Virus record (IMG/VR): IMGVR_UViG_3300032893_000002
Coordinates: 46,668-110,667 of that record
DNA: 64,000 bases
Strand: one strand, 5' to 3'
Source: a virus
The translations under genes were made by a program, and so were the position numbers. The notes beneath the pieces are model-generated. The model ran no database searches. It was not told the origin of the DNA and saw nothing but the letters and a program-made list of their open reading frames with translations. Positions within the stretch are counted from its first letter, which is position 1. Every line of letters begins with the position of its first letter. This document shows, one piece after another, positions 1 through 42,933 of the stretch.

Positions 1-212
1 CAAAGCAAATAGCTGCAGCCAGATTTTTGTTATTGGGTTATGATAATAAAAGTATTGCACTGGAATTGGGCATTGCGGTGCGAACTGTGAAAGCATATAT
101 GGCTGCTTTAATGCGCATATTCCATGTTAAAAATCGTATTGCATTAGCTATAGCATTAATGCGAAATCAAGAGTGGAGTGAATTACTTGTCGACTCATCT
201 TCCAGTATATAA
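1..212 (+). CDS. LuxR/GerE-type HTH transcription regulator, 5'-truncated by window edge
   Basis: Reading frame is open from nt 3 with no upstream stop inside the window. C-terminal LuxR-type HTH signature: SIALELGIAVRTVKAYMAALMRIFHVKNRIALA. Confidence 0.55.
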   Translation, partial: KQIAAARFLLLGYDNKSIALELGIAVRTVKAYMAALMRIFHVKNRIALAIALMRNQEWSELLVDSSSSI

Positions 213-498
213 ATTTAAATATGAAGACGCAAGAAGTTTAACGAAGACTGAGCATAACATACTTGCCTTACTTTGTGAAGGAAAGGTTAATCGCGAAATC
301 GCATGCGAACTAAAATGCACTATAGACGCTATTAAGTGTCGCTTACACAAGATATACGATAAAATAGGAATGTCTTCGAGGCTAGAAGCTGCGATATGGT
401 ATGAAACAAATCGCAACAACTTTCGCCCATTTGAAGAGGAAAATAATACAGATGATATCAATTCTTCTGCCGACGAGAAAGCGGCCTGCAAATCTTAG
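178..498 (+). CDS. LuxR-type HTH domain protein
   Basis: HTH block LTKTEHNILALLCEGKVNREIACELKCTIDAIKCRLHKIYDKIGMSSRLEAAIW is typical of the GerE/LuxR family. Start would be GTG; overlaps the preceding gene end. Confidence 0.5.
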   Translation: MNYLSTHLPVYKFKYEDARSLTKTEHNILALLCEGKVNREIACELKCTIDAIKCRLHKIYDKIGMSSRLEAAIWYETNRNNFRPFEEENNTDDINSSADEKAACKS

Positions 499-1165
499 AC
501 GATTAGTTACTTCTATCCGGGAAACATCCGTAACTAATCCCGAGATCGTTGTTTACATCGACGACGATGATAAAGAGTCAATTCCAACAGCTGAAGAACT
601 TAAACTAGTAATTCTCGTTGGCCCAAGAATTATCATGACCGACTATTGGAATAAATGTTATGATGTTTGTTCGGGCGATATTGTCATGCAAATGGGCGAC
701 GATGTGGTATTTAGAACTCCCGGTTGGGATAAAATGGTCGAAGAAGAGTTTGAAAAATGGCCAGATAAACTTATTGTAGTTCATGGTGATGATCTTGATC
801 CAAATTTTAGAAGTAGATTTGGAACACATTCCTGTGTGCATCGAAAATGGGTGGAGACTTTAGGTTATTTTATTCCTCCATTCTTTTCTTCTGATAATGG
901 AGATAGATGGCTGATGGCTGTTGCGGATTTTCTTGATCGTAGAATATTTTTGCCGTTTGTTACTGAGCATATGCATTTTAGGACACAGAAAGCAAAAATG
1001 GATTCTACATATATAGAAAGATTAGAAAGGCACGAAAAAGATAATCCAAATCAGCTCTATATTGATCTGATTGATCGCAGACTTGAAGATGCTGCAAAAA
1101 TTCAGCAAGCAATAGACGAATATGAATCCTGTCAAAAACAAGAAGAAAGTAATATACACGCTTAA
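452..1165 (+). CDS. GT-A fold glycosyltransferase-like protein (paralog 1 of 3)
   Basis: Start at MISILLPTRKRPANLRRL with GAGGAAAA RBS. Motifs LPTRKRP...VVYIDDDD...MGDDVVF (DxD). Paralogous to 17636..18487 and 19309..19977. Confidence 0.5.
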   Translation: MISILLPTRKRPANLRRLVTSIRETSVTNPEIVVYIDDDDKESIPTAEELKLVILVGPRIIMTDYWNKCYDVCSGDIVMQMGDDVVFRTPGWDKMVEEEFEKWPDKLIVVHGDDLDPNFRSRFGTHSCVHRKWVETLGYFIPPFFSSDNGDRWLMAVADFLDRRIFLPFVTEHMHFRTQKAKMDSTYIERLERHEKDNPNQLYIDLIDRRLEDAAKIQQAIDEYESCQKQEESNIHA

Positions 1166-1814
1166 TATCAACTATTCAAAAGATGTCACGAATCTAACTT
1201 ATCCCCTTCTGAGACGATATGCCAAGAAGATAGATGCTGATTTTGAAGTTATTACTTCAAGAAAATTTCCCGATTGGCCTATCGTATACGAAAAACTTCA
1301 AATCTATAACTTAGCCAGAGAACAGAATAGAGAATGGATCTACTATATCGATTCTGATGCTCTAATACATCCTGATTTTTTTGATCTAACAGATCTTGTC
1401 CAAAAAGATACAGTTATTCATACAGGAGCAGATTTTGCTCCTATTCGCTGGAAAATGGACGATTATTTCCGTCGCAACAGACGATATATTGGATCATGCA
1501 ATTGGTTTACAGTTGCTAGTAATTGGTGTTTAGATTTATGGCGTCCTCTAGACGATTTAACCCCAGAGCAAGCACTGGCTAATATTTTTCCAACAATACA
1601 AGAGGCCAAGACAATAATTACTAAAGAACATCTGATAGATGATTATACTCTAAGTAGAAATATTGCTAAGTATGGTCTCTACTTCACATCTGTTGCAGAA
1701 ATCTTAAAGAGAACAGATCCGGGAGGTAATTATTTCTGGCATCAGTATACAATTCCTATAGCTGAGAAAGTTAAAGAGTTAAAACAAATGCTCCAAATAT
1801 GGAATTTGATTTAG
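1122..1814 (+). CDS. Nucleotide-sugar transferase, GMA12/MNN10-like (GT34-like)
   Basis: REWIYYIDSDALIHPDFFDL resembles the EWIWWLDxDALI motif of galactosyl/mannosyl transferases. Confidence 0.4.
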   Translation: MNPVKNKKKVIYTLNINYSKDVTNLTYPLLRRYAKKIDADFEVITSRKFPDWPIVYEKLQIYNLAREQNREWIYYIDSDALIHPDFFDLTDLVQKDTVIHTGADFAPIRWKMDDYFRRNRRYIGSCNWFTVASNWCLDLWRPLDDLTPEQALANIFPTIQEAKTIITKEHLIDDYTLSRNIAKYGLYFTSVAEILKRTDPGGNYFWHQYTIPIAEKVKELKQMLQIWNLI

Positions 1815-2600
1815 ATGGCGAATAATAATAAATTTAATAACTCGACAGGAAATCCTCAGACCTGGACCTGCCCGGATGGTGTTGTTACTGTTATAGTTGA
1901 AGCCTGGGGGGCAGGAGGCGGAGGAGGAGGATCCAATAACAACGCAACTACTGGGTCAGCTAGCGGAGGAGGCGGAGGAAGTTATTCGAGATCTGTTTTA
2001 AATGTAGTTCCAGGAACGAGTTATACGTTTAATATCGGTGCGGGAGGTAACGGAGGTACAGGAGGAAATACTAACGGGAGTAACGGAGGAACAACAGATT
2101 TTAACAATAGTCAGATCACGTGTAATGGAGGTGTAGGGGGACGAAATGGAGCAGTTACAACAGCTGGAAATGCTTTAGGAGGCGCTGTAGGAACAGGAAC
2201 ATTTACATTTAAAGGCGGAAATAGTGGTAACGGTCATACTACGACAGGTAGCGGAGGCGGAGGGGCAGGAGGAGGAAATGCTAACGGAAGCTCAGGCACA
2301 AATCCCGGTGCAGGAGCAGGAGGAACAGCTAATGCTAGTTTTACTCCTGGAGGAAATGGCGGAGGTGGCCGACCTGTAAATAATAACGCCGCTAACGCTG
2401 CTGCAAACGGAGTAATTCCAGGAGGAGGAGGCGGAGGAGCCGGAAGAACAAATAACTCTAACACAAATGCTCCCGGCGGCAATGGCGCAAATGGACAGAT
2501 TATTCTTTGGTGGGTTCAACCTGAATTTTTAGGTACTACATCTAATCCTAAGAATCAAAATGAAATGGGTTACTTACCGATTTCGATAATCGGATATTAA
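1815..2600 (+). CDS. Glycine-rich repeat protein (structural or fiber-like)
   Basis: About 45% Gly with GGxGG, GNGGTGG and PGG repeats. Tight coupling to the next gene (TAAtATG). Confidence 0.45.
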   Translation: MANNNKFNNSTGNPQTWTCPDGVVTVIVEAWGAGGGGGGSNNNATTGSASGGGGGSYSRSVLNVVPGTSYTFNIGAGGNGGTGGNTNGSNGGTTDFNNSQITCNGGVGGRNGAVTTAGNALGGAVGTGTFTFKGGNSGNGHTTTGSGGGGAGGGNANGSSGTNPGAGAGGTANASFTPGGNGGGGRPVNNNAANAAANGVIPGGGGGGAGRTNNSNTNAPGGNGANGQIILWWVQPEFLGTTSNPKNQNEMGYLPISIIGY

Positions 2601-2601
2601 T

Positions 2602-3942
2602 ATGGCAATTGCTCAAGACCATACTACACCTGTTCAGAATATTGTATCAGGAACACCTTTTTCGGTTCCATCAAGTACTGGTAATCTTAGTGTAGTTGCC
2701 TTTATCGGAGGAGCAACTGCCACTATAACTAGTGTTACAGATAACCAGTCTAATGCTTATTATCCAGCTATCACGTTTAATGAAAGCGCTGGAGCGTTCA
2801 TTAACATGGCAATCTGGTATGCTCCCGGAGCAGCGACAGGAATAACGTCAATTACAATTAATTATATAAATGGCGGAGGAGGCAATTACGAAGATGCTGT
2901 TATTTATGATTTTTCTGGAGCGCATCCAACAAACCCTCTTGTAAATGGAGATTATACTGACGATATAGGAACAGGCTCGACTGCTACAACAAATCCTGTT
3001 GGTCCGGCTCTTAGTTATCCTTATGGCGGAGGAGCAGCGCTTTCAATTCTCCACGGCGGAAATGTAAGCTCAGTTGCTTCACCTTATACATTAGATTTTA
3101 AAGGTTCATCAGGATCTGAGGCAGAAGTTGGATTTGCTAGTATGGTATTTGGATCTCCGGGAACATTTGCTCCAAGTTGGACTACAACATCAGGTGCATG
3201 GTTTAGTGTTGTAGTTTTATTTGCTTCTAATACAGGTCCAAATAATCTTAGATTCGCTAAAGGGAAAACAGCTATATTTGGTAATTCGGTTACAACTGCC
3301 AATTCTCTTACTGTTACTAACGGAGATCTTGTAGTAATAGTAGCATCAGCTGATCCAGGTAAATCTTCAATTCCGCCCGCTTTTACAGATAATGTTTCAA
3401 ATTCATATACAACGATTTCTGCTATTAATCCGTATGTGGGAGAAACAAATGATGGAATACTTTTTGCGGGATATGGAATAATTGGTAGTTCAGCAGGAGC
3501 ATGTTTTTGGAATTTTAATCACGATGCAAATGAGGGAAATGTAATATACGTAATAGTAATAACGCCATCAGTAACACCAACGTTTAATGCTATAGGAACA
3601 GGATTTGAAGCCAGTTCTGTAACACACTTTACTGCTGCTTCTTGTTCTCCTACAGCAGGCGATTATCTGTTTGCGGCACTAGCTTCTTATGGAGCAGTTG
3701 CGCCACAAAGTTTTTCTGCAAATGGCAGTTGGATTTTAGGTCCAAATGAAGGCGATGGAACTTACTATATCGACGTAGCAGTTGAATTCCAGCTTAGTGC
3801 TGTAGGCGGTTCTACAACTGATGATTTTACAGCATTATCAGGAACAGGAAATGAAGTAATTTTTTCGTTTAGTTTACCGGCAGGAAGTATTTCGCTTTAT
3901 CCAAATGATATGACACCAGGAACTCTAGTAACTTGGCGATAA
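2602..3942 (+). CDS. Member 1 (two-domain) of tandem paralog family with conserved C-terminal YPNDMTPGTLVTW motif
   Basis: S/T/N/G-rich. Contains the GNLxVV...ITSVxDxxxN core twice. C-terminus LYPNDMTPGTLVTWR is shared with the next four genes. Confidence 0.6.
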   Translation: MAIAQDHTTPVQNIVSGTPFSVPSSTGNLSVVAFIGGATATITSVTDNQSNAYYPAITFNESAGAFINMAIWYAPGAATGITSITINYINGGGGNYEDAVIYDFSGAHPTNPLVNGDYTDDIGTGSTATTNPVGPALSYPYGGGAALSILHGGNVSSVASPYTLDFKGSSGSEAEVGFASMVFGSPGTFAPSWTTTSGAWFSVVVLFASNTGPNNLRFAKGKTAIFGNSVTTANSLTVTNGDLVVIVASADPGKSSIPPAFTDNVSNSYTTISAINPYVGETNDGILFAGYGIIGSSAGACFWNFNHDANEGNVIYVIVITPSVTPTFNAIGTGFEASSVTHFTAASCSPTAGDYLFAALASYGAVAPQSFSANGSWILGPNEGDGTYYIDVAVEFQLSAVGGSTTDDFTALSGTGNEVIFSFSLPAGSISLYPNDMTPGTLVTWR

Positions 3943-3967
3943 AATAATATGGAAAGAGTGTAAGTAG

Positions 3968-4726
3968 ATGGCTTTTATTCATATTCAAGGCGGCACAGCA
4001 AATACAGGAGGAGTTGTTGGAACATCATTCACAATAGTACTATCGAACACTCCGATTGTCGGAAATTTAGTATGCGTAGGGATAGTGTTCATCAATGCAA
4101 CTAATACAAGTCCTGCATCTATATCTATATTAGACGGCAATAATAACAGATATGTTATTACGCCAAATTCACCAGCAGCAGGAACATTTCCAAATGCGGG
4201 TTCAGGCGGCACATCACCTGAGTATGGATGGTTATATCTATGCTATTTCCTCGTAACTGATTTACCTTCTTCGCAAATTATTGTTACATGGGCAAATAGC
4301 ATGTATGCTCAGGGTTGGGCAGAAGAATTTTCTGTTAGTGCAGGCGTTATTAGCTTCGATAAAGATGTTGCTGGAACAGTACAAACTGCATCGGGAACTG
4401 TAGCAAATATTCCTTCAATAACGCCTCTTGCAGCCAATTCACTATTGTACAGTGTTGGATGCGATGATTATAATGGTTTCGTTGCTCCGACAGCAGGAGG
4501 AACACTAGGTGCTTGGATAGGCGGCGCTGGCGGACCCGACTTAGCTATAACGGGAGGCAATACAGAATACGATTTAGCTGCAACAGGATCGACTAGTGTT
4601 AATTACACTTGTGGAGTAAGTGGAGATATTTACATTGCATCTGCAATGTCTTTCTACACTATGCCTACAGAGATTTTTCCTCCAGATATGACACCCGGAA
4701 CTTCCGTAGCTTGGAGGTTCAAATAA
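3968..4726 (+). CDS. Member 2 of tandem paralog family (MAFIHIQGG N-terminus, PPDMTPGTSVAWRFK C-terminus)
   Basis: N-terminus matches member 4. Conserved C-terminal motif. Confidence 0.6.
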   Translation: MAFIHIQGGTANTGGVVGTSFTIVLSNTPIVGNLVCVGIVFINATNTSPASISILDGNNNRYVITPNSPAAGTFPNAGSGGTSPEYGWLYLCYFLVTDLPSSQIIVTWANSMYAQGWAEEFSVSAGVISFDKDVAGTVQTASGTVANIPSITPLAANSLLYSVGCDDYNGFVAPTAGGTLGAWIGGAGGPDLAITGGNTEYDLAATGSTSVNYTCGVSGDIYIASAMSFYTMPTEIFPPDMTPGTSVAWRFK

Positions 4727-4728
4727 AG

Positions 4729-5436
4729 ATGATTACAATAGATGCGATTTCTATTCCGGCTCAATTTGATGCTATCAACCCATCTTTTAATATCACTCCG
4801 ACGAAGGCAAACTGTTTTCTTGTTGTTACATTCGGAATGGCGGGGCCAAACGTAAACATAACTATTTCCTCAGTTATTGATAATGCTTCAGGCGGAACAA
4901 ATTTATATCAACAAGTTCCGGGAGCTTACTCATTTGTTAACGGCGGCGACGGTGAAATTTTCAGTTTTGATATATGGTACTGTTCTAATTCTAAAGCAAA
5001 TGCAAATCAGCTTTCGGCAAATCTTTCTGCAGAAGCTAATACGCAGATTGTTGTGTATCAACTGTATGGTCTGAATTTAGGCGAATCTCCTGAAGCAGCA
5101 GTTGGAATATCTAATGGATCATTTACAGGTTTATCGTCATTTTCAACTCCGCCAATTACGACATCAGCTTTCTCTTCTTTTATTGTTGTAGTAGGCGATG
5201 CTACATGGGGTTTTGCTAAAGTAGCATTACCTTGGTCAGGATTACCTGATGCAAATGGAAACTACCTCGCAACTACTACAGCATACTTAATTACAGATGG
5301 TCCAGGAACTTATATCCCAACTTGGCAAACACAAAATACAAATAACTATGCGATGAGTGGCGCATCGTTTCAAGGTGATCAGATTCTAGCTTTCGATACA
5401 ACACCTGGAACAAATATTGGATGGAGTGTTGAGTAA
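4729..5436 (+). CDS. Member 3 of tandem paralog family (C-terminus DTTPGTNIGWSVE)
   Basis: ATG at 4729 preceded by GGAGG. Core FLVVTFG...ITISSVIDNASGG. Degenerate C-terminal motif. Confidence 0.55.
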   Translation: MITIDAISIPAQFDAINPSFNITPTKANCFLVVTFGMAGPNVNITISSVIDNASGGTNLYQQVPGAYSFVNGGDGEIFSFDIWYCSNSKANANQLSANLSAEANTQIVVYQLYGLNLGESPEAAVGISNGSFTGLSSFSTPPITTSAFSSFIVVVGDATWGFAKVALPWSGLPDANGNYLATTTAYLITDGPGTYIPTWQTQNTNNYAMSGASFQGDQILAFDTTPGTNIGWSVE

Positions 5437-6107
5437 TGGCTTTCGTTCATATACAAGGTGGAATAAGTGGAACAGGATCAGCTATATTGACATTAACAAA
5501 CAATCCCGGACAAGGGAATCTTGTTTGTTTTGGCTATTTGTTTGATACTACTGCTGGTGTCATTACATCAATTGTAGATAGTAATGGGAATCCCTATTCT
5601 ATTGTCACTACGACAGATAGTGAAGTAGTAGGACTTGCATTCTTGCTTAATGCTCCTGCTAATGCCAGCAAAACAATTTTTCTTAACTTTACTGGCAGTC
5701 CTAGTTTTTATGAGGTGTGGGGCGATGAATTTTCGTGCGGAACATCAACAGTATTCGATAATGTTGTGGCTGCTTCAGGAAACGCAGTAGCTGGTATTAT
5801 TAATACACCAGTAATTACTCCAAAACTTTCCGGCGGTGAGTTATTATATAGTTTATGCTCGCCCAATGTTGTTTTAACGGCTCCAGGATTAGGTGTTGTA
5901 TATAACGGATGGACGGGAACTGCGATTGATGCAATATACGGAACAGGAGGAGAATACATACTTAGTGCAAATTCGCCTCAAGCTGTGGCTTATGTTAATA
6001 ACGATCCTACAGGAGCTTATACTGCAATTGCAATGGCTTTTTCAGAAGGACAGATTGCTCCTTCTGATATGACGCCTGGATGTAACTTAGTAATGGAGAT
6101 TGGATAA
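5436..6107 (+). CDS. Member 4 of tandem paralog family (MAFVHIQGG N-terminus, PSDMTPGCNLVMEIG C-terminus)
   Basis: TAATG overlap with upstream gene. Motifs GNLVCFG...ITSIVDSNGN. Confidence 0.6.
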   Translation: MAFVHIQGGISGTGSAILTLTNNPGQGNLVCFGYLFDTTAGVITSIVDSNGNPYSIVTTTDSEVVGLAFLLNAPANASKTIFLNFTGSPSFYEVWGDEFSCGTSTVFDNVVAASGNAVAGIINTPVITPKLSGGELLYSLCSPNVVLTAPGLGVVYNGWTGTAIDAIYGTGGEYILSANSPQAVAYVNNDPTGAYTAIAMAFSEGQIAPSDMTPGCNLVMEIG

Positions 6108-6832
6108 TGGCTGTCGAATTTGACGCAGTTGGACCTAATTCGTCAGGTACAGGCGGAACAGGAGTAAATATAGCTGCAACTCCTATTAATTGGAATCATA
6201 CTTGTTCCGGAACAAATGGATTATTAGTTGTATGTGTTACATATGGAGGAGGAGATAATCCAACATTCTCAGACTTTAGTGTAACATACAATAGTATTCC
6301 TATGCTTCAAGGAGCATTTCAATACAACGCAAATGATGGTACAGATTGTGCGATGCTGTTCTATCTTATTGCGCCCGCATCAGGAACGAATCAAGTTTCT
6401 CTATTTTCTAATTCGGGCTTCCTTTATGGGGATTTTCAGTGTGGATCTGTGAGTTACACAGGTGTAGATCAAATTACAGGGATAAGAAATGCTGTTAGTA
6501 ATGCAAGTTCAGGCGCATCTTCTCCAGCAACATTAACAGTATCAAGTGCTGTAGGGAACATGGTAGCATTTGGTTTAGGGTCAGGTGCATATAGCGGAAC
6601 TTCAAACCAAACGGACAGATGGCAGTTTAATCAAAATGGTGATACGGGCGGAAGCAATGGACTTCAATCTGATGCTCCAGGCGCGGCTTCTGTTTCGTTT
6701 AGCGATTCAATTAATGGCGGTGCAGGTGATTATTGGGGTATTGTAGGATTTGATATAATTGCAGCATCATCGTTATCAATTTATCCTGAAGATATGACGC
6801 CCGGATCAGAAGTAACGTTTAGAATTATTTAA
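6107..6832 (+). CDS. Member 5 of tandem paralog family (C-terminus YPEDMTPGSEVTFRII)
   Basis: TAATG overlap with upstream gene. Same core pattern and C-terminal motif. Confidence 0.6.
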   Translation: MAVEFDAVGPNSSGTGGTGVNIAATPINWNHTCSGTNGLLVVCVTYGGGDNPTFSDFSVTYNSIPMLQGAFQYNANDGTDCAMLFYLIAPASGTNQVSLFSNSGFLYGDFQCGSVSYTGVDQITGIRNAVSNASSGASSPATLTVSSAVGNMVAFGLGSGAYSGTSNQTDRWQFNQNGDTGGSNGLQSDAPGAASVSFSDSINGGAGDYWGIVGFDIIAASSLSIYPEDMTPGSEVTFRII

Positions 6833-9800
6833 TGTACCGTCAATATCAATACGACGTATTTACTGAAGGACTGCCTCCAGCCCCTGAAGTTGTAGAAGCT
6901 AGTAGCTGGGTGCAACCTCAAAGCCAGCCTATCCCGAATAACTTTGTATCGAAGTTGAAGGCTGGTGTAGTAGCTGCTCTCGTCGCTTCAGGAATATTCT
7001 ACACTGCTCTTGCTCCGCAAGTAGTAACAGCTAGCGGAATATCAGCAGACTGTAGCTTCTTTGTAATTAATAGAAGCTATGCTGCGCAAATAGCTTCAGG
7101 TGTATATTCAGTTCCATTCGTTCCGGCGGCAGCGGCAGCAGCAGGCGGATCAGGCGCATCTCAACAACTTCTAAGCTTAAAAGCTAGAGGTACGCAAGCT
7201 CATCTTCAGACAAGTACGTTTTGGAGTGCCTTCACTCCATCTGCACCTTCACAAGGCGGCGGCTTTTCTGCAGAAACAATAAGATTGCGATTCCAGCGAC
7301 GCTTCGCTTCGCAATCTCCAAGCGTTTTCTGGAATACCTTTACTCCAGCAACTGCAATTACTCCTGTAATTGCTCCATGCGCAGAATATCCAGATTCATT
7401 CTATAAGAAACGCTATTTAACAGAAGCACTAGATTCTTCTGATGGACAAGCTGTAATTGGTACTCTTCCTCCTTCGATTCAAACAGCAGTAGGAGGAGCG
7501 CAAGGAAAATCTACAGTAATCCGTATTAATCGCAGTTATGCAGCTCAAATAGCCTCAGGCGAAGTATTTGTTCCTGTTGTTGCAGCTCCGACACCAACTG
7601 GATGGTTAGGAGATCAGAATCAGCTTCCGCGAGGTAAACAATCTCTTGCTGTAGCTGAGCAGCAAGCTGTATTCTTCACTGCTCTTGCTCCGCAAGTAGT
7701 AACAGCTAGCGGAATATCAGCAGACTGTAGCTTCTTTGTAATTAATAGAAGCTATGCGTATACATCACCGTCTGTATTTTGGAATCCTAATACTCCTGTT
7801 TTACCTCCAACTGGATGGTTAGGAGATCAGAATCAGCCTCTTCCAATTAGAAAAGGATTAGCTGCAGGAGCGCAGCAGTATTCTCCTGGTGTTGTTCAAG
7901 CAGGTTCTACTCCAAGTACATTTGGATTAGTATGCGCTGAGAAGCAGCAGGTATCTCAACGATATCTAGCCGCTAATCAACAGGCTGTATTTTATACTTC
8001 TTTTGTTCAAGTATCTGTACTTAACTGGCTGCCTTCATATCCGGATTTCTTTAAACCGAAATTTTCAGCTGGCTTATATATTTATTCAACTCAAGCTAAT
8101 GTTCCGGTAGAACAATTAGCGTCTGCTGATTATCCGGATTGGATTGCTGGGAAGAAGTATTTAACAAGTAATCAACAAGCAGCATTTGGTCCGCTATCTA
8201 CATCTCCTGAAACTGTATTTGTATCAAGTTGGGCGCAACCACAATCCCAACCATATCCATATAGAAGAAGTCTACAAACAGCTCAGCAGATAGCTGTATT
8301 TTGGAATACTTCTACTCAACCTGAAGTCGTAGAAAGTGCTAGCTGGTATCCAACTTATCCGCAGCCTTTCCCGACAAAACCTTATCTCAGTACCGCTTCA
8401 CAGCAATATTATTTCTTCGGTAAACAGGTTGCGCAGGAATATCTTGTAGGAAATACTCCTGTATCGCAGCCAAGCTTTAAGCAAAGAGCAGTTGCTGTTT
8501 ACGAACCAGCTTCTAACTTCATATTTACTCCTGCTCAGACGTTTAATGCATGGCTGCCTGCTTATCCTGATAAAGTTTATAGTAGACCTTATCTCCTTGC
8601 TGCACAACAGCAAGCTGTATTTGGACCTTTATCTACAGATCAAGAAACTGTATTTGTAAGTAGTTACGTACAACCCCAATCACAGCCTTATCCATATAAG
8701 CGCAGTCTACTGACAGCGCAGCAGCAAGCAACATTCTGGAATACAAGTACTGCGACTGAAACAGTATTAGTCAGTTCTTGGGTACAGCCACAATCTCAAC
8801 CATATCCGTATAGAAAAGCTCAACTAACTGCTAATCAGCAGGCTTTGTTCTGGAATACAAGTACTCAGCCTGAAACAGTATTTGAGAGTAGTTGGCAGGG
8901 TGTTCAAAGTCCAGCTCTTCTCAATAGAAAAGTACAGCAGCCCGATTCACTGAGTTTTGTTTCAGATATCAATCTGGCTACAGTAGTTCTTCCAGATAGA
9001 AGAGTTACTGTTCCTGCAATAGCAGTCTATCTACCTTGCTCTACTTGGTTAGCTCAGCCAACAACGCAAGTATTCCTTGATTGGCAACAGCCGCAATCGC
9101 AACCGTTATCTACACGGCGTATACAGCCAGTTGATGTAGTAACAGTCGTTCCTCAGCATATCGGACTAGATTGGCAACCTGTATATCCAGATGCTGTAAT
9201 AGGAAGACGATTCCTTACAGCAGATCAGCAATGGTTGGCCTGGAATACTTCTACTCAGTCCGAAACTGTATTTGAAAGCAGTTGGCAAGGTATCACGTGG
9301 CAACCGTGGCCAGCTAAATGCTATTTATCCGCTGCTCAGCAACAGGCATTCTTCTGGCAACCTAATACTCCAGGCGACTTTACTTTCCTGTTGCATTGGG
9401 AACCGATTTATCCGCAACCTTTCCCAAAGAAACTGTATCCAGCTGCAGCGCAACAACAAGCGGTCTTCTGGAATACATCAACACAGCCTGAAACTGTATT
9501 AGTAAGTTCATGGGTACAGCCTCAAAGTCAGCCTTACCCATATAAACCCTATCGCCCTGCAGCCTTGTATCCATCTGTATTCTGGAATACAAGTACAGCA
9601 CCTGAAACTGTTTTTGTTAGCAGTTACGTACAGCCGCAGACGCAGCCTTATCCTTATAAAAAAGCTATTCAACCCTGCGAACAACTTACATTCGTTTGGG
9701 AAGAAGCAACTGCTGACGAAGTTTCAATAGATTGGGTCCAGCCTCAATCTCAGCCTTATTCTTACAGAAAAGTACTTACTACTGCAGAGCAGCAAGCAAC

Positions 9801-11484
9801 ATTCTGGAATACATCAACAAGTCCAGAAACTGTACTTGTTAGTAGTTGGGTACAACCTATCAGTCAGCCTTATCCGTATACAAAGGCTTTACAGACTGCA
9901 AACCAACAAGCGGCGATTTGGAATATATCGACGCAACCTGAAACAGTATTAGTTTCTAGTTGGGTACAACCTCAAAGTCAACCGTATCCATATAAACGAG
10001 CAGAGTTAACAGCTAATCAACCAGCCGCTTTCTGGAATACATCAACAAGTCCAGAAACGATTACTGTAGATAAATGGCTGCCTGTTTATCCGCAACCATT
10101 TCCTGTTAAACAGTACATATTAACTGCCAATCAACAAGCATTCTTCTGGCAACCAAATACGCCAGGAGATTTTAGCTATTTATACCATTGGGAGCCTGTA
10201 TACCCACAACCGTTCCCGGTAAAGAGATACTTACAGACAGCTAATGTACCAGCATTCTTCTGGAACACATCGACGCAACCGGAAAGTGTACTCGTTTCAA
10301 GTTGGGTACAATCGCAGAGTCAACCATATTCTTACAAGCCGTATCGTCCGGCTTCGTTATACCAGAGCACGTTCTATGCTCCATTCGTATCAGAAAATGT
10401 TCAAGTAAGTAGTTGGGTTCAAGCACAATCACAACCAAGAATTCAACAAACTACTATTGCTTCTCAGACAAGTTTCTTCTGGGGAGAAACAACTTCTGAT
10501 GCGGGAACATGGTATCCTGTCGTTTCACAGCAGCAAGTTAAGATATTTGCGCGTGCTGTATATGAACCTGCTGTTAGCTGGAATCCAAATACTCCAGTTC
10601 AAGTTACCCTTGACTGGCTGGCGGTTTCGGAACAACAGCTAACGAAACGCAACATACAGCAATATGCTTCTGTATTCTGGAATGCATCTACCGCTCCAGA
10701 AACTGTATTTATTTCTAGCTGGGAACCTGTTATTGCGCAACCAGTATTTACAAAACCTGCGCAATATCAAGCATTATTCTGGAGTGGATTTACACCTTCG
10801 CAACAAGTTGTTATACTAGATTGGGATACTGTATATCCGCAACCTGCTAAGCAGAGATTTGCAGCGAGCGTATATTCATATTCGATTCAAATCCATACTC
10901 CAGTTATTCAAATTGCTACGGCTGATTATCCAGACCAAATTCCTGGAAGACAGTATCTTACAGCAAATCAGCAAGCAACGTTCTGGGATCCGAATACAAC
11001 ATTCGGAGAAACTGTACTTGTTAGTAGTTGGGTGCAGCCTCAATCTCAACCGTATCCTTATACGCCATACAGTCCGGCGAGCGTGTATCCTGTTGTCTTC
11101 TGGAATACATCAATTAATCCAGAGACTGTATTTGTATCTAGTTGGATACAGCCAATTGAGCAGCCTTATCCGTTCGTTAAGGCTTTGCAACCAACAGAAC
11201 AATTAACGGCAGTATGGAGTACATTTACTCCGCCGCCACCAGTTGCTCCTGATTTTGGATGGTATCAGCAAGTTGTTCAGCCTTATCCACATTCGCGCTT
11301 CCTAGAAGCCTTACAGCAAAGCGTTACGGGCAGTAACTTCCCATTGCCTAATGCCGTAACGCAATTTGTTCAAGGAACTGGATTCGTAACGCAAGTTGTA
11401 AATGTACAAGGTTCGATAGAAAATACTGCTGCCGCTACTGGATCAATAACGACTATTAGCGGCACGGGGTCAGTAGACCAATAA
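6832..11484 (+). CDS. Giant 1550-aa P/Q/W-rich tandem-repeat protein
   Basis: More than 25 copies of a ~37-aa unit ETVxVSSWVQPQSQPYPYK...LTANQQAxFWNTSTxP. Coupled to the upstream gene by TAATG. Confidence 0.7.
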   Translation: MYRQYQYDVFTEGLPPAPEVVEASSWVQPQSQPIPNNFVSKLKAGVVAALVASGIFYTALAPQVVTASGISADCSFFVINRSYAAQIASGVYSVPFVPAAAAAAGGSGASQQLLSLKARGTQAHLQTSTFWSAFTPSAPSQGGGFSAETIRLRFQRRFASQSPSVFWNTFTPATAITPVIAPCAEYPDSFYKKRYLTEALDSSDGQAVIGTLPPSIQTAVGGAQGKSTVIRINRSYAAQIASGEVFVPVVAAPTPTGWLGDQNQLPRGKQSLAVAEQQAVFFTALAPQVVTASGISADCSFFVINRSYAYTSPSVFWNPNTPVLPPTGWLGDQNQPLPIRKGLAAGAQQYSPGVVQAGSTPSTFGLVCAEKQQVSQRYLAANQQAVFYTSFVQVSVLNWLPSYPDFFKPKFSAGLYIYSTQANVPVEQLASADYPDWIAGKKYLTSNQQAAFGPLSTSPETVFVSSWAQPQSQPYPYRRSLQTAQQIAVFWNTSTQPEVVESASWYPTYPQPFPTKPYLSTASQQYYFFGKQVAQEYLVGNTPVSQPSFKQRAVAVYEPASNFIFTPAQTFNAWLPAYPDKVYSRPYLLAAQQQAVFGPLSTDQETVFVSSYVQPQSQPYPYKRSLLTAQQQATFWNTSTATETVLVSSWVQPQSQPYPYRKAQLTANQQALFWNTSTQPETVFESSWQGVQSPALLNRKVQQPDSLSFVSDINLATVVLPDRRVTVPAIAVYLPCSTWLAQPTTQVFLDWQQPQSQPLSTRRIQPVDVVTVVPQHIGLDWQPVYPDAVIGRRFLTADQQWLAWNTSTQSETVFESSWQGITWQPWPAKCYLSAAQQQAFFWQPNTPGDFTFLLHWEPIYPQPFPKKLYPAAAQQQAVFWNTSTQPETVLVSSWVQPQSQPYPYKPYRPAALYPSVFWNTSTAPETVFVSSYVQPQTQPYPYKKAIQPCEQLTFVWEEATADEVSIDWVQPQSQPYSYRKVLTTAEQQATFWNTSTSPETVLVSSWVQPISQPYPYTKALQTANQQAAIWNISTQPETVLVSSWVQPQSQPYPYKRAELTANQPAAFWNTSTSPETITVDKWLPVYPQPFPVKQYILTANQQAFFWQPNTPGDFSYLYHWEPVYPQPFPVKRYLQTANVPAFFWNTSTQPESVLVSSWVQSQSQPYSYKPYRPASLYQSTFYAPFVSENVQVSSWVQAQSQPRIQQTTIASQTSFFWGETTSDAGTWYPVVSQQQVKIFARAVYEPAVSWNPNTPVQVTLDWLAVSEQQLTKRNIQQYASVFWNASTAPETVFISSWEPVIAQPVFTKPAQYQALFWSGFTPSQQVVILDWDTVYPQPAKQRFAASVYSYSIQIHTPVIQIATADYPDQIPGRQYLTANQQATFWDPNTTFGETVLVSSWVQPQSQPYPYTPYSPASVYPVVFWNTSINPETVFVSSWIQPIEQPYPFVKALQPTEQLTAVWSTFTPPPPVAPDFGWYQQVVQPYPHSRFLEALQQSVTGSNFPLPNAVTQFVQGTGFVTQVVNVQGSIENTAAATGSITTISGTGSVDQ
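7002..7082 (+). repeat. 81-bp direct repeat, copy 1 (identical copy at 7677..7757)
   Basis: Identical nucleotide strings encoding TALAPQVVTASGISADCSFFVINRSYA, 675 bp apart and in frame within the giant repeat gene. Confidence 0.75.
7677..7757 (+). repeat. 81-bp direct repeat, copy 2
   Basis: Same sequence as 7002..7082. Confidence 0.75.
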
Positions 11485-11485
11485 G

Positions 11486-11680
11486 ATGCCAACCTTCGCC
11501 GCTATTTTAGCTGTTCTGGATGCAATGGCTAGAGGAAAACTTACGCTACATCCTTCATTAGAGGGAGCCGTAAGTTTTGTTTATGCTCCGCCATCGCAAA
11601 TCTATGTTCAACAAAGTTATCCGACACAGCAGATTGTTATAGAAGCATCCAGTACGTGCTGTGTGTCGTTTGGAGGGTAG
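11486..11680 (+). CDS. Small hypothetical protein (64 aa)
   Basis: ORF ends with TAG and is followed, in the same frame, by the next gene. No motif recognised. Confidence 0.3.
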   Translation: MPTFAAILAVLDAMARGKLTLHPSLEGAVSFVYAPPSQIYVQQSYPTQQIVIEASSTCCVSFGG

Positions 11681-12097
11681 ATGAAAAGATTTATCATGTT
11701 TGTAGTAATCGTATTCGCAATTTTTTCGTTAGGGGCAGTTCAGCCTAGCATTCTAGGATTACCAAATTCTGTAACAACGTTACCGATAAACGTAAATACT
11801 AGCGGCGATGTACAGCTTATTGCTGCTGTAGCAAACCAAGCGATTTATGTTACGCATTATCATATTGTTTCCAGCGGGACGACTACATTTCAATTTGATT
11901 ATGGTACTGGATCAAATTGTGGCACTGGAACGACTCCAATTGATGGACCAATGTCTTTCATTGCTACAACAGGAATTTCTGCTGGAATAGGTTTCGGTGC
12001 TGTTATTGTTGTACCTCCAGGTAATGCGTTATGTATAAATCTAGGTACTAGTAGCGTACAAGTTGGCGGATCAATTTCGTATCAGCAAGGAAATTAG
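11681..12097 (+). CDS. Secreted or membrane-anchored beta-rich protein
   Basis: N-terminal hydrophobic signal/anchor MKRFIMFVVIVFAIFSLGAV. GGAGGG just upstream. G/S/T-rich body. Confidence 0.4.
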   Translation: MKRFIMFVVIVFAIFSLGAVQPSILGLPNSVTTLPINVNTSGDVQLIAAVANQAIYVTHYHIVSSGTTTFQFDYGTGSNCGTGTTPIDGPMSFIATTGISAGIGFGAVIVVPPGNALCINLGTSSVQVGGSISYQQGN

Positions 12098-12098
12098 T

Positions 12099-12410
12099 AT
12101 GAAATTTCGATATCTACTATTATTTCTATTGCTTAATCAATATTCATTTGCGAGCCGTCAAATAGTTTTAACTTGGAATACCTCCGATGGTGCTATAACA
12201 TATAATATTTATCGAGGAACAGATTGTTCTTCGCTTTCATTAGTATCGACAGGCGTTGCAATTACAACATGGACAGATACAGATGTATTAAGAGGGCAAC
12301 AGTATTGCTATGCTGTTACAGCAGTCAATTCTAATGGAGAAAGCGCATACAGTAATACGTATTTAATTCGTATCCCAATGTCAAATTTAACGATGATGGG
12401 GAGTGGCTAG
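12099..12410 (+). CDS. Secreted fibronectin type III (FN3) domain protein
   Basis: Signal peptide MKFRYLLLFLLL. FN3 signature LTWNTSDGAITYNIYRG...YCYAVTAVNSNGES. AAGGAAA RBS. Confidence 0.55.
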   Translation: MKFRYLLLFLLLNQYSFASRQIVLTWNTSDGAITYNIYRGTDCSSLSLVSTGVAITTWTDTDVLRGQQYCYAVTAVNSNGESAYSNTYLIRIPMSNLTMMGSG

Positions 12411-13392
12411 AATGTCAGCTATAGTTTCACCACCTGTATCATTTACATTTAGAGCTTTACAGCAAGCCCTTCTTAGCTGGACACTTACTGACCAAAATGG
12501 TAATCCCATCTCCGGAGCTACTGTAAATGCAACACTATATGAAAATTTAAATCTTCAAAATCCTACTGACTATCCAGGTACGCCTGTTGCAGGATTTACA
12601 AATGTTAACTTAGTTGAGACTCCAGCAGCTTCCGGAATTTATGTAGCAACTCTTCCTGCTACGATTAATCCAGATCCGGCAACGATGGGATTTATAACTG
12701 TTATTGTTGCGACTTCGGGCAGTACACCTCTTGGTACATGGAATATTCCGACAGTTATAGTCCCAGCTTCAAATACAATCGACTTAACAACTTTAAGCGA
12801 TGTTAAAGCTTGGCTCGGAATTCCCACTGTTAATACAGATAATGACGAAGTAATTCAAGCGTTGATTACAGGATTTAGTCAATACGTTATCAACCGCACT
12901 GGTGTTGCATCATTTAATTCCATCAATCAATATATAGAGATTTACGATGGTAACGGTTCCCAAAGATTATTCTTAAGGAATTATCCAATTACAGCAATTA
13001 TATCTGTGTTGATAGGTTCTTACTCAGTTCCGCTTTCCTCTGCGGTGAATGCGCCAGGAATATTTATAGAGCAACTGAAACGTTCTATTGCATTTAGAGC
13101 CGGCAGCGTAGGTTGGTTTCCATCAGCAGGGTTATTTCCTTATACTTTTGCTCCTGGTATCGGCAATATTCAAGTTACGTATACAGCGGGATTTGCGCAA
13201 GTTCCCTACGATCTACAAGAAGCTTGTTTCAAGGCTGTTGCTATAAATTATACACGAAAGAGTACAATTGATCAAGGCAGTAAAACATTAAGTGCGTCAG
13301 GTGGAGGGACAGGAACCGTTGCATTTAGAGCATGGGCATTGCCCCCAGAAATTGAGCGCGTCATAATGTATTACTCGCGATACGGTAAGTAA
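12403..13392 (+). CDS. Head-tail connector (gp6/HK97-like) domain protein with N-terminal extension
   Basis: LSDVKAWLGIPTVNTDNDEVIQALITGFSQYVINRTG matches the head-tail connector signature (VK..LRID..D..I..LI.AA..Y.E..TGR). Confidence 0.5.
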   Translation: MARMSAIVSPPVSFTFRALQQALLSWTLTDQNGNPISGATVNATLYENLNLQNPTDYPGTPVAGFTNVNLVETPAASGIYVATLPATINPDPATMGFITVIVATSGSTPLGTWNIPTVIVPASNTIDLTTLSDVKAWLGIPTVNTDNDEVIQALITGFSQYVINRTGVASFNSINQYIEIYDGNGSQRLFLRNYPITAIISVLIGSYSVPLSSAVNAPGIFIEQLKRSIAFRAGSVGWFPSAGLFPYTFAPGIGNIQVTYTAGFAQVPYDLQEACFKAVAINYTRKSTIDQGSKTLSASGGGTGTVAFRAWALPPEIERVIMYYSRYGK

Positions 13393-13493
13393 TGATTTTT
13401 AATAAATCCAAATCCAATGATACTCAGACATTCCCGTCGGCCCAGCAACGCGCAATTGGGTAGGTAAACCGGGCTTACTTAAGGTATAAAACA

Positions 13494-13988
13494 ATGTCCT
13501 TTAGACTTGATTTTAATGGATCAGACGTGAAGTTCCTTAACTTCCTAGCAGGATATTCTTCACGTTTGTCAGCTTCATTAGAAGATCGTATGTCGCAGCT
13601 TATGGATAAGCTAAGACAAAAGATTGTAGGCGAAAAGTTAGCCGGAGAATACTTAAATAGAAGAACAGGCAGATTAGCAGATAGCTTTGGAACGCCAGTT
13701 ATTGATCGTAGTAGCGATTCTGTTATTACAGGAGACATTCAAGGTGCGGGCGGAGATGCCTCTTATGGACAGATATATGAAAGAGGCGGAACGTCTGCTT
13801 ATCTTATTCGTCCTGTAAATAAGAAAGCGTTGCTGTTTATGATCGCAGGGAAAGAGCAGTTTGCTCATTTAATACTTCACCCTCCGGCCAAACAACGAGC
13901 TTTTTTAACATCTGCTATTGATGATATGGAAGAAGAATTTCGAGAAGGAATTCGAGAATGTGTAATGGGAGATTTTACAAATGGGTAG
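13494..13988 (+). CDS. Hypothetical, positionally head-tail joining protein
   Basis: Lies between the connector-like gene and the major tail protein. No motif recognised. Confidence 0.3.
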   Translation: MSFRLDFNGSDVKFLNFLAGYSSRLSASLEDRMSQLMDKLRQKIVGEKLAGEYLNRRTGRLADSFGTPVIDRSSDSVITGDIQGAGGDASYGQIYERGGTSAYLIRPVNKKALLFMIAGKEQFAHLILHPPAKQRAFLTSAIDDMEEEFREGIRECVMGDFTNG

Positions 13989-14478
13989 TGCAGCAAGTTT
14001 AATTGCGCCCGGATTAAGACCTCTACCGCATGCAACGCGGCAGCAAGTTTTTACAGCTCTTTTCAACTTTTTAACAAACCTTCCAGCACCTACGGGAACG
14101 CGCTGGAATACGCAGTCTCAATACTTGACTTTATGGGATGATGTTCCACAAGCAAATCAGCCAGCTTGGTTTTTGTATCGCGGTCCGCAGAACTTTACGC
14201 AGAAGCATGTCTTTGGAGTACAAAAACTACTTTGGCGTGTTTCTATATTTATCTATTTTCGAACAGACGGATATAAATCACAGAATTTTTATCCAGATCA
14301 AATAACAGATCAAATTCTAGATAATCTAGAACAGCTATTTCAGACCGAAGCTCGTGACGGAAGACAAACTCTGGGCGGCACAGTTTGGCATTGCTGGATC
14401 GAAGGGAATATTGTTACAGATCCGGGACTTGTTGATGGGCAAGCCGTAATCGTATGCCCGATAAACATCCTTTTATAA
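13981..14478 (+). CDS. Hypothetical, positionally tail completion/terminator protein
   Basis: Position only; overlaps the upstream gene. Confidence 0.3.
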   Translation: MGSAASLIAPGLRPLPHATRQQVFTALFNFLTNLPAPTGTRWNTQSQYLTLWDDVPQANQPAWFLYRGPQNFTQKHVFGVQKLLWRVSIFIYFRTDGYKSQNFYPDQITDQILDNLEQLFQTEARDGRQTLGGTVWHCWIEGNIVTDPGLVDGQAVIVCPINILL

Positions 14479-15536: not shown

Positions 15537-16451
15537 TTGGAGGTCATTTTATTGACTACAACACGACTTTCACATAAACAGCTAATCGAAAAAATTCGTA
15601 AAAACTTAACAAATTTCAATCCTGTACAAAAATGCGATCCCAAAAAAGGTAAAACATATGAGGAGTATTATGGACAGGAAGATGCAAAACTTATACGAGA
15701 GAAGATGCGTGATTCGCATCTTGGGCAAGAGCCAGGTAACAAAGGCAAACCTTCTCCATTTAAAAACAAAACTTATGAAGAAATAGGCAGAGGTCCAAGT
15801 CCGTTACTAGGACGCGAGCGACCACAAGAAGATCGAGATAAAATTAGTAAAGGTCATTTACTAAGATTAGGTAAAGATAAACCTTCGGAAGAGCGTGATG
15901 GACCACTCACCAGCAGATGGCGCGAGCAGGTTAAGAAACGAGATAACTATACATGTCAATGCTGTGGAGTTAAGCAAGAAGAATTGCTAAGAATAGTTGG
16001 AGATATTACATCGTGGCTTCATGCGCATCATATAAAATCTTGGGCAGAATTTCCAGAGCTTAGGTTTGAAGTATCAAATGGAATTACGCTTTGTTGGCCT
16101 TGCCACTTAAACGTCGAAGGCAAACAGATTAGCTGTCCAGAGCCGCCTCTGCAACAAGTCAAAGTCAAAAACATCAAGACTAGAGGTAAAACGCTAGAAG
16201 AAGTTTATGGATTAGAACGTGCCGCAGAGATAAAGCAACGGCTAAGGCAAAGTCATTTAGGTAAGCCAACAGGGAGAAAAGGCGTTAAGCGTCCTGGAAT
16301 AGGCGGCCGCAAAAAAGGAAGTATTCCACATAATAAAGGGAAGACGAATATCGAAATTTATGGAGTTGAAAAGGCTAAACAGCTAAGTTTAATTGCTGCA
16401 GAGAATGCGCGAGTAAATAGGAATAGATTAGGTACAGGCATTTTTCAATGA
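15537..16451 (+). CDS. Free-standing HNH homing endonuclease (likely starts at TTG 15552)
   Basis: HNH motif CQCCGVK...HAHHIKSWAEF...NGITLCWPCH. Repeated basic K/R-G modules. Confidence 0.7.
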   Translation: MEVILLTTTRLSHKQLIEKIRKNLTNFNPVQKCDPKKGKTYEEYYGQEDAKLIREKMRDSHLGQEPGNKGKPSPFKNKTYEEIGRGPSPLLGRERPQEDRDKISKGHLLRLGKDKPSEERDGPLTSRWREQVKKRDNYTCQCCGVKQEELLRIVGDITSWLHAHHIKSWAEFPELRFEVSNGITLCWPCHLNVEGKQISCPEPPLQQVKVKNIKTRGKTLEEVYGLERAAEIKQRLRQSHLGKPTGRKGVKRPGIGGRKKGSIPHNKGKTNIEIYGVEKAKQLSLIAAENARVNRNRLGTGIFQ

Positions 16452-18487: not shown

Positions 18488-18490
18488 AAA

Positions 18491-37290: not shown

Positions 37291-37291
37291 T

Positions 37292-41042: not shown

Positions 41043-41053
41043 GATGGATAACT

Positions 41054-41633: not shown

Positions 41634-41674
41634 CAGTAGGTTGTTTTTACAATATCATACTATTAATTATTGAT

Positions 41675-42079: not shown

Positions 42080-42091
42080 CAAGAGGAGAAT

Positions 42092-42721: not shown

Positions 42722-42722
42722 T

Positions 42723-42932: not shown

Positions 42933-42933
42933 A

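Follow-up and report, generated by a model that had tools for sequence, protein, structure and literature searches.

A 1550-residue repeat protein encoded on the head side of an uncultured siphovirus belongs to a metagenomic family of modular, apparently unfolded phage proteins

The stretch of viral DNA analysed here, hereafter the window, comprises 64,000 nucleotides (positions 46,668 to 110,667 of the IMG/VR record IMGVR_UViG_3300032893_000002) and holds the virion genes of a large tailed phage. This phage is a siphovirus whose tail tip is RcGTA-like, and even the nearest phages on deposit have hub proteins only ~25% identical to its own. The window contains a gene for a very large repetitive protein. 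A first-pass annotation, made from the sequence without database searches, had proposed either a sequon-bearing substrate of a cytoplasmic glycosyltransferase (GT), as in HMW1/HMW1C-type systems, or a fibrous head or tail decoration protein. Here we report that the protein is the largest member found of a large phage family known only from metagenomes, and we tentatively propose that it forms a long flexible filament or tether, attached to the head or neck and working with lectin-like modules.

The start codon, an ATG, and the stop codon of the gene before it overlap (TAATG). All close homologues of the protein open with the same M-(F/Y)-(R/K)-Q-(Y/W)-Q-Y motif, which argues that this start is correct, and an identical copy of the protein is on record from a contig of 180,030 nt. 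The first-pass description of a 1550-aa open reading frame (ORF) rich in P, Q and W was borne out by the translation and by residue counts: Q 11.5%, P 10.3%, S 9.9%, T 8.5%, W 3.6% and Gly 3.5%, with F, Y and W together at 14.4% and a low content of charged residues (K+R 4.9%, D+E 5.3%). The GC content is 40%, and a promoter and terminator scan of positions 1-14000 returned nothing beyond shuffle expectation. The gene and its internal parts are:

6832..11484, plus strand: repeat-protein gene (P0001), a single unbroken ORF of 1550 aa
6832..7014, plus strand: N-terminal head, aligning with 23 other family N-termini; E19, W26 and P33 invariant
aa 3-7: QYQ motif of the N-terminal head
aa 19-35: first W-x-x-P-x-S-Q-P module, within the N-terminal head
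aa 44-61: hydrophobic segment AGVVAALVASGIFYTALA of the N-terminal head; hydropathy 1.73 (Kyte–Doolittle, KD, 19-residue window)
7002..7082, plus strand: 81-nt exact direct repeat, copy 1
7015..8208, plus strand: degenerate N-terminal third (aa 62-459), with partial W modules and a second module type, giving partial hidden Markov model (HMM) matches
7677..7757, plus strand: 81-nt exact direct repeat, copy 2
8209..11235, plus strand: main array of 38-aa modules (aa 460-1468)
9262..10509, plus strand: 11 modules without interruption (aa 811-1226)
11326..11481, plus strand: C-terminal tail (aa 1499-1550) with spaced G-x-G motifs, kept in five close homologues

DNA repeat finders returned a period of 114 nt, corresponding to 38 aa, with copies 60-78% identical to one another, and the consensus of the unit reads ETVxVSSWxQPQSQPYPYKRxLxTAxQQAxFWNTSTxP. 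An iterative HMM of the unit gave 36 matches between residues 19 and 1498, of which 15 are full length, and a separate profile made from 63 units gave 32 matches in the same protein. The many copies described at first pass (more than 25) are therefore real, 32-36 of them being detectable, with the unit measuring 38 and not, as stated there, about 37 residues. Pairs of units are almost saturated at synonymous sites (mean pairwise pS 0.72 versus pN 0.38), which indicates an old array held by selection at the protein level, with no recent expansion.

A homologue 86% identical to the window protein (P0002) differs from it by indels of 35 and 145 aa. The latter removes or adds about four modules in module register, and we conclude that copy number shifts by recombination in the register of the unit. 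The 81-bp identical direct repeat that had been noticed near the 5' end is present as described, 7002-7082 being identical to 7677-7757. In P0002 the two peptide stretches that match these copies differ from each other; therefore, the DNA identity looks like the trace of a gene conversion within the gene, and the comparison suggests that the event was recent.

The 63-unit profile, 38 columns wide, was searched against 1.84 billion cluster representatives and, in metagenomes, matched 320 proteins at E<=1e-3, 133 at E<=1e-10 and 22 at E<=1e-30. In the 1036 units that come from outside the window's own clade, the fixed positions hold E in 99%, W in 98% and P in 98% of cases, within a core that reads E-T-V-T-x-D-(K/R)-W-x-x-P-x-S-(E/Q)-P-V-R-x-(K/R). 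Since these three residues are near-invariant over so many units, the matches represent a family and not compositional noise. Its members share a layout made of an N-terminal head (QYQ, a first W-x-x-P-x-S-[EQ]-P module and a short hydrophobic helix), a module array and a conserved tail. The head typically reads M-A-R-F-F-Q-Y-Q-x-K-T-E-P-V...P-E-T-V-T-E-D-K-W-H-Q-P-W-S-E-P-V-R-x-K-I-A-P-A-L-A-V-A-L-I-A-S-G, and the tail appears as ...VSIKEIP...ASIEET, as an acidic amphipathic helix or, in the window's clade, as G-x-G strands. The window protein has the head and the W-module array by which the family is defined, as seen from the profile, from the unit statistics and from the N-terminal alignment, where its first ~60 residues align with the family head and E, W and P are invariant.

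The length of the array is very variable, with 3-32 modules among the family matches listed and 3-20 in typical members. The smallest members, of ~180 aa, consist of the head and a 'VSIEEIP..SIxE' tail with none or one module in between (for example L010 2826-3371). Some members also contain an internally recurring R-x-F-Q-Y-Q module. The second module type in aa 62-459 of the window protein, F-x-I-N-R-S-Y-A..., may be the clade's counterpart of it, as judged by eye from a comparison with P0006, P0009, P0037 and P0091.

The 1550-aa protein has no Pfam, PHROG, NCBIfam or PDB-sequence match, and megablast against deposited phages gave nothing useful; unit and N-terminus profiles found no match in the PDB. 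Among ten members submitted to Pfam nothing informative emerged except one TIG domain, carried by P0017, and the PHROGs gave no match of note for the same number of members. A word-indexed search recovered five homologues, 29-72% identical and 954-1371 aa long, all metagenomic, and where a source gives family members a name it is always 'hypothetical protein'. A tblastn search with five diverse members (P0001, P0009, P0013, P0096 and P0142) found none in 50,697 deposited phage genomes, and an IMG/VR scan with P0001 found no relatives. Finally, a scan of 185,579 species genomes for the N-terminal motif matched only two short contigs of one Patescibacteria metagenome-assembled genome (MAG), which may be mis-binned phage DNA or a clue to the host:

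JAGWKM010000082.1 (L011): Patescibacteria MAG contig with the family motif
JAGWKM010000055.1 (L012): Patescibacteria MAG contig with the family motif

The genes on either side of the repeat gene, and the ORF that occupies the tape-measure slot further downstream, are:

1815..2600, plus strand: protein with a Gly-rich domain, ending ...SIIGY (Pfam Gly_rich_2, 8.5e-17; PHROG 863)
2602..6832, plus strand: paralogue cassette of five genes (blastp, sequences)
2602-3942, plus strand: double-domain paralogue of 446 aa, a tandem duplication of the cassette domain
3968-4726, 4729-5436, 5436-6107 and 6107-6832, plus strand: single-domain paralogues (~230-250 aa)
11486..12410, plus strand: three small ORFs separating the repeat gene from the adaptor gene
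11681-12097 and 12099-12410 (the latter FN3-like), plus strand: ORFs with signal-peptide-like N-termini
12403-13392, plus strand: head–tail adaptor gene with an Ig-like N-terminus (Pfam Phage_connect_1 and Big_1; PHROG 442, 4e-20; NCBIfam connector)
20753-29056: tape-measure-sized ORF of 2767 aa, upstream of the DUF2460 and hub genes

As the first-pass annotation had it, the repeat gene directly follows a cassette of paralogues, which comprises five genes. The adaptor gene is followed by neck and tail genes, the tape-measure-sized ORF, a DUF2460 gene, a phiJL001-gp84-type hub gene and the gene of a 1819-aa Phage-tail_3 protein, so that the tail-tip module (the hub at 30276, the 1819-aa protein and its paralogues) lies 19-26 kb downstream of the repeat gene. 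The roles of tape measure, scaffolding protein and ejection protein were considered and rejected for the repeat protein, given its composition, its position and the separate 2767-aa ORF. For a tape measure, a very long and mostly helical protein, the expected place is between the tail chaperone and the distal tail genes; this slot is taken by the 2767-aa ORF, and the repeat gene lies upstream of the adaptor gene.

The same arrangement recurs in related loci. In those of close homologues the order is GT genes, double-domain paralogue, single paralogues, repeat gene, adaptor gene and tape measure. Throughout the siphovirus clade the repeat gene is found 0-3 ORFs upstream of the head–tail adaptor gene, which follows it immediately in L001 and L006. 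Five further loci (L007, L008, L009, L010 and L013) are SU10-like podovirus contigs with SU10_portal, Phage_capsid_4 and SU10_adaptor genes, and in these the repeat gene stands between major capsid or other head-side genes and SU10_adaptor, 4-13 genes before the latter, with Laminin_G_3-type proteins encoded after it. Each locus holds one copy of the repeat gene. In addition, a small protein of 136-242 aa ending at or near ...(I/L)-x-G-Y is encoded directly before it in L007, L009 and L013; the one in L007 (235 aa) aligns with the window paralogues, below HMM significance. In conclusion, beyond what had been noticed at first pass, there is a widespread unannotated family, of at least 320 clusters, of modular and apparently unfolded phage proteins encoded in the head/neck block.

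The cassette itself was characterised by structure prediction. The AlphaFold2 (AF2) model of paralogue 5436-6104 is all beta (pTM 0.69), and on this prediction the five cassette products are beta-sandwich proteins; the fold matches, at 13-21% identity, are sandwiches of the carbohydrate-binding-module (CBM) type and phage 'minor tail proteins'. The neighbouring 1815-2600 product was matched by PHROG 'minor tail / tail fiber assembly' and by Pfam Gly_rich_2. The 446-aa protein (2602-3942), which has no PDB, Pfam or PHROG match, was also considered as the major capsid protein; this candidate was rejected, the protein being a duplicated paralogue domain with the same C-terminal tag as the other cassette products.

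Fusions connect these neighbours with the repeat family. P0099 is laid out as beta-sandwich domain, hydrophobic helix, modules and VSIxEIP tail, and its N-terminal 200 residues show homology to the product of window gene 5436-6107 (blastp 2e-10, HMM 3e-10). P0026 matches the paralogue profile weakly (E 0.005), and P0045, P0063, P0053, P0124 and P0142 have a P0099-like layout with N-terminal domains that are not significant against that profile. P0021 carries before its modules a Gly-rich region that resembles, by eye, the window's 1815-2600 protein; Pfam assigns no family to P0021, Gly_rich_2 included. Genes that are separate and adjacent in the window are thus found elsewhere as one polypeptide, which is a classical sign of shared function.

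By comparison, the modules gave no fold. For a segment of six modules (residues 887-1114), supplied to AF2 with an in-register alignment of 18 non-overlapping six-module windows, the model returned had a mean pLDDT of 46.9 and a pTM of 0.13 without secondary structure; the prediction for the monomer is thus an extended or disordered, non-globular array. Pfam, PHROG and AF2 revealed no fibre domain of the types sought (Phage_fiber_2, Collar, Gly-X-Y collagen repeat, beta-helix), and Pfam found no Ig-like or FN3 domain in the 1550-aa protein, these being present only in the neighbours 12403-13392 and 12099-12410.

Altogether, the conserved ends, the more than 10-fold range in the length of the middle part, the adaptor-side slot kept in two morphotypes, the lectin-like partners and the non-globular prediction lead us to favour the filament or tether. 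On this reading the two conserved ends would serve for attachment and binding, and the repeat array would act as an extensible stalk that enlarges the capture radius; at ~0.3 nm per residue, 1000 extended residues could reach hundreds of nm. The small beta-sandwich proteins encoded upstream, lectin- or minor-tail-protein-like, would be the binding elements, and the filament, placed on head or neck, would make the first contact with the host. In the window's clade, the hydroxyl-rich N-T-S-T-x-P patch of the modules may in addition be glycosylated by the GT2 enzymes of the phage. The 'fibrous head or tail decoration protein' offered as an alternative at first pass agrees with this in kind and with the adaptor-side position, and is a better direction than the HMW1-type reading; the prediction, however, is of a non-globular protein and not of a classical folded fibre.

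Several considerations weigh against the filament, which we put forward tentatively because its place on the virion is only inferred. Gene position is suggestive and no proof, and in L007 the adaptor gene comes only after about 13 others. The lack of any family member in the 50,697 deposited phage genomes (five queries) leaves no proteomics or electron microscopy (EM) to borrow. A shallow alignment could also account for the low confidence of the AF2 model, as could a protein that folds only as an oligomer, for instance as a trimeric fibre. Moreover, the hydrophobic segment (KD 1.73) and the signal-peptide-bearing neighbours would fit an exported, non-virion product equally well.

The C-termini of the neighbouring proteins deserve a separate description. 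A peptide of the (Y)P-x-D-(M/T)-T-P-G-x-x-(V/I)-x-W type closes every cassette product, with the loosest versions in 4729-5436 and 5436-6107, and at least 10 otherwise diverse proteins of the clade (112-448 aa) share the C-terminal peptide (Y/F)P-x-D-(M/T/L)-T-P-G-x-x-(V/I)-x-(W/F), of which ...AFDTTPGTNIGW and ...FPENMTPGSDIIV are looser versions. Another ending, of the (I/L)-x-G-Y type, is found in the window's Gly-rich protein (...SIIGY), in a paralogue-like protein of L002 (...IIPY) and in P0158. The carriers are:

L001 6422-7735 and 9654-9992; L002 7919-9265; L005 22-360 and 2063-2767: genes with the YPxD-type tag beyond the window
Window 1815-2600; L002 9266-9994; L007 9292-9999; L009 9590-10000; L013 9261-9989; P0158: carriers of the (I/L)-x-G-Y-type ending

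The YPxD-type peptide, recurring as it does in otherwise diverse sequences, resembles a shared tag for docking, sorting or modification, and six window genes carry a tag of either the YPxDMTPGxxVxW or the I-x-G-Y type. An unlikely elaboration of the filament is a new kind of phage 'scaffoldin': an intrinsically extended head or neck filament, maybe glycosylated and mucin-like, whose modules would dock the C-terminally tagged lectin-like proteins.

We then weighed the other readings. Compatible with the filament is that of a mucin- or extensin-like glycoprotein, with the N-T-S-T-x-P patches glycosylated, probably in O-linkage, by the phage GT2 enzymes. The 1550-aa protein holds 16 N-x-S/T sequons against 8.1 +/- 2.6 in composition shuffles, a ~2-fold enrichment; three of the 16 are NRS, all located in the second module type. 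The first-pass claim that each repeat carries an N-T-S sequon did not stand, since only 12 of the 26 units alignable through that position have one. In six close homologues Asn occupies the position in 61 of 130 units, being otherwise substituted by H, S, G or Q, and Thr is found three residues after this position in 107 of 119 units. The sequon at this position is a trait of the clade, with 54 of 140 units (39%) versus 6 of 180 (3%) in the rest of the family, and the sequon density is 1.06 per 100 aa versus 0.33 elsewhere.

The GT genes were examined in the same way. That the repeat gene sits among several of them was confirmed, there being five GT-like genes in the same structural block:

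401-1165, plus strand: upstream GT2 gene (Pfam); product 70% identical to that of a gene in the homologous locus L001
1122-1814, plus strand: weak GT34-like gene, sub-threshold match only
17636-18487, plus strand: GT2 gene between the tail-tube region and the tape-measure gene
18491-19312, plus strand: GT2 gene, single strong match; resembles enzymes for polysaccharides and lipid-linked glycans, far below curated cut-offs
19309-19977, plus strand: GT2 gene between the tail-tube region and the tape-measure gene

The genes 401-1165 and 17636-19977 are placed among adaptor, tail and tape-measure genes, that is, inside the virion structural block. Three of them (401-1165, 17636-18487 and 19309-19977) are mutual GT2 paralogues, 43-52% identical and split between two sites of the block, and have no specific matches, with generic GT2 entries only in NCBIfam and PDB. 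The four solid GT genes all match GT2/GT-A families and stay below the cut-off of every specific enzyme family. GT genes occur within 10 kb of the repeat gene in all three clade loci whose upstream sequence reaches far enough (the window, L001 and L002) and in none of five distant loci (L007, L008, L009, L010 and L013). In L008, two Asp/Asn beta-hydroxylase (Asp_Arg_Hydrox) genes at 8204-9069 lie 1 kb upstream of the repeat-family gene, which hints at a post-translational modification in another branch of the family.

For glycosylation, then, speak two traits confined to the clade, the sequon or hydroxyl-rich patches and the GT genes close by; one GT2 is 70% identical between the window and L001, and the hydroxylase genes of L008 offer a hint of other modifications. 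There is also a precedent, in that phage GTs are reported, in the account of Freeman et al. (2023) given by PMC12619734, to glycosylate virion subunits of mycobacteriophages. On the other side, the correlation amounts to three loci versus five and is confounded by phylogeny, and a single siphophage lineage of ~180 kb may carry GTs for the modification of DNA or of host glycans. The GT2 matches are generic, the best being builders of polysaccharides or lipid-linked glycans, and other S/T-rich proteins of the block, for example the paralogues, are equally plausible substrates. Because the sample is small and confounded by descent, we consider the glycoprotein possible, if doubtful.

Signal peptides in the neighbourhood bear on a further reading, in which the repeat protein is an exported, membrane-anchored, non-virion product. 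Its hydrophobic segment would be the signal anchor, and its unfolded array would face the periplasm or be displayed by the infected cell, where it might bar superinfection or remodel the envelope. Besides the two downstream ORFs listed above, signal-peptide- or lipoprotein-like N-termini were observed at L001 7738-9640 and 3997-4545, L002 4944-7916 and 13249-13704, and L005 357-2062. The signal-peptide-type proteins of these blocks include one that is FN3-like and one of 990 aa with a weak CHB_HEX_C_1 match; the presence of such proteins in the structural module of a tailed phage is unusual. These ORFs, downstream and in the blocks of L001, L002 and L005, would fit export of the repeat protein, as would the basic residues that precede the hydrophobic segment and the 58 of 144 family members that exceed KD 1.6 at the same place. 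However, the segment is short (~13-18 residues), falls under the usual threshold in 60% of members and is in register, by eye, with the polar L-x-T-A-x-Q-Q-A-x-F-W half of ordinary modules. In the fusions P0099, P0045, P0063 and P0021 a beta-sandwich or Gly-rich domain precedes it, so that a signal anchor would leave this domain in the cytoplasm, and the adaptor-side gene position is kept in two morphotypes. On balance, we judge export improbable.

We give as little credit to a capsid-bound thread, cement protein or assembly ruler, in which each module would bind one repeating site of a lattice or polymer. Arrays of strongly kept linear motifs (W 98%, P 98% and E 99% over 1036 units) joined by variable linkers, with no autonomous fold in AF2 and a gene in the head block, are what such a thread would look like. 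Nevertheless, the more than 10-fold range in module number and the unit-register indel between 86%-identical proteins fit a spacer better, the lectin-like fusions suggest an outward-facing role, and no partner was identified.

Finally, in the HMW1/HMW1C system of Haemophilus the enzyme is a GT41 N-glycosyltransferase of ~600 aa, and its substrate is a two-partner-secretion exoprotein with HMW1B as transporter. No GT41 or STT3/PglB oligosaccharyltransferase was found in the eight ORFs scanned out of the window's nine of at least 400 aa, and the ninth, the putative tape measure, is without a Pfam match; Pfam, NCBIfam and PDB sequences gave no two-partner-secretion domain in the 1550-aa protein. 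A sequon-bearing substrate of a cytoplasmic N-glycosyltransferase of this type, the first proposal made for the locus, shares with the window a large repetitive protein, many N-x-S/T sites (16 versus the 8.1 +/- 2.6 expected, 12 of them at one module position) and GT genes nearby (five GT-like genes in the block), but is most improbable, because neither the GT41 enzyme nor the secretion domain was found in the ORFs scanned, the GTs are GT2/GT-A under the curated cut-offs of specific families, and the sequon looks poorly conserved, its Asn being present in less than half of the units, swapped for H, S, G or Q, and kept in 6 of 180 units of the wider family.

The remainder of the window holds further observations of its own. 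The 1819-aa Phage-tail_3/Rcc01698-like protein (31831-37290) shares segments with the paralogues 37606-38949 and 38950-40266, which are 48% identical and belong to PHROG 2448, and small related companion ORFs lie just before the first (37292-37648) and just after the second (40266-40631); the region 31831-40631 looks like a duplicated tail-tip fibre cassette. Next to it, 40641-43701 is a probable lysis region, with genes for several membrane proteins of small size, for a lipoprotein-like product (42092-42721) and for a Peptidase_C1 protein of the papain family (42934-43701). An HNH endonuclease gene (15537-16451) lies within the tail-gene block, and a homing-endonuclease-like ORF (29056-29628) follows the tape-measure-sized ORF and precedes the DUF2460 distal tail gene. 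An intein that includes a LAGLIDADG endonuclease splits a DnaB-like helicase gene, a Hint/intein and an HNH domain are present in a radical-SAM gene, and an SPFH/Band 7 family gene is found on the minus strand (59957-60871) among the replication-side genes:

49156-51798 and 52061-53668, minus strand: intein-bearing genes

As for what these data mean, phage head filaments or 'hairs' have been seen for decades, those of phiCbK and 7-7-1 being what first touches the host, and the proteins that form them are mostly unassigned; the family described here, always encoded in the head/neck block and often joined to lectin-like domains, is a testable candidate for them in uncultured phages, and its module profile permits the annotation of hundreds of 'hypothetical' phage proteins. 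If true, the scaffoldin would be a multivalent and easily re-programmed adhesion organelle, and would provide the gene family behind the head filaments or 'hairs' seen by EM.

Known head decoration proteins include the phi29 head fibre and T4 Hoc. SU10 gp10 is a putative head decoration protein with a predicted Ig-like fold (PMC9509320) and, judging from gene numbering, lies between the capsid and adaptor genes, in the same slot as the repeat gene. These proteins have folded Ig-like or trimeric fibre domains, whereas the window protein has neither, nor any predicted fold; what gp10-type decoration proteins share with it is the appearance of a dispensable surface appendage.

On the modification side, the mycobacteriophages described by Freeman et al. 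(2023), as related in PMC12619734, carry GT genes in the structural operon and glycans on C-terminal extensions of capsid and tail-tube subunits. The likeness lies in the GT genes within the structural block, the proposed acceptor being here the repeat protein; if the link is one of real glycosylation, the result would be a mucin-like virion glycoprotein, a target unlike the capsid and tail tube of mycobacteriophages. The paralogue model, for its part, matches predicted structures of minor tail proteins from Mycobacterium and Gordonia phages and a CenC-like carbohydrate-binding protein. This is a likeness at the level of the fold, since the paralogue genes are on the head side of the adaptor gene and not at the tail tip.

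Long flexible head filaments or capsid fibres have been seen by EM in phiCbK, 7-7-1 and other phages, with their genes unassigned or guessed (PMC3556154, PMC12796354). Those of the Agrobacterium phage 7-7-1 are flexible, protease-sensitive and ~90-115 nm long and make the first contact with the host, through a protein that was not identified (PMC12796354); the likeness to the filament proposed here is purely a functional analogy, and the deposited phage genomes yielded no family member. The best counterpart in kind is gp76 of the large Caulobacter siphophage phiCbK, a protein of 2799 aa with low complexity, tandem duplications, predicted coil/beta structure and a lectin-type domain, encoded near head genes, whose role in the head filament was inferred and which went undetected in virion mass spectrometry (PMC3556154). 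The tblastn search with P0001 against the 50,697 phage records, in which phiCbK is assumed to be included, gave no match to gp76, and no homology is implied. The two proteins also differ in composition, gp76 being Gly/Ala-rich with poly-Gly runs and the window protein rich in Q, P, S and W with a defined 38-aa module, and in the placing of the lectin-type domain, which is part of gp76 and resides in separate genes in the window phage. Even so, both are of the same kind: huge, low-complexity, tandemly expanded and lectin-associated proteins encoded on the head side.

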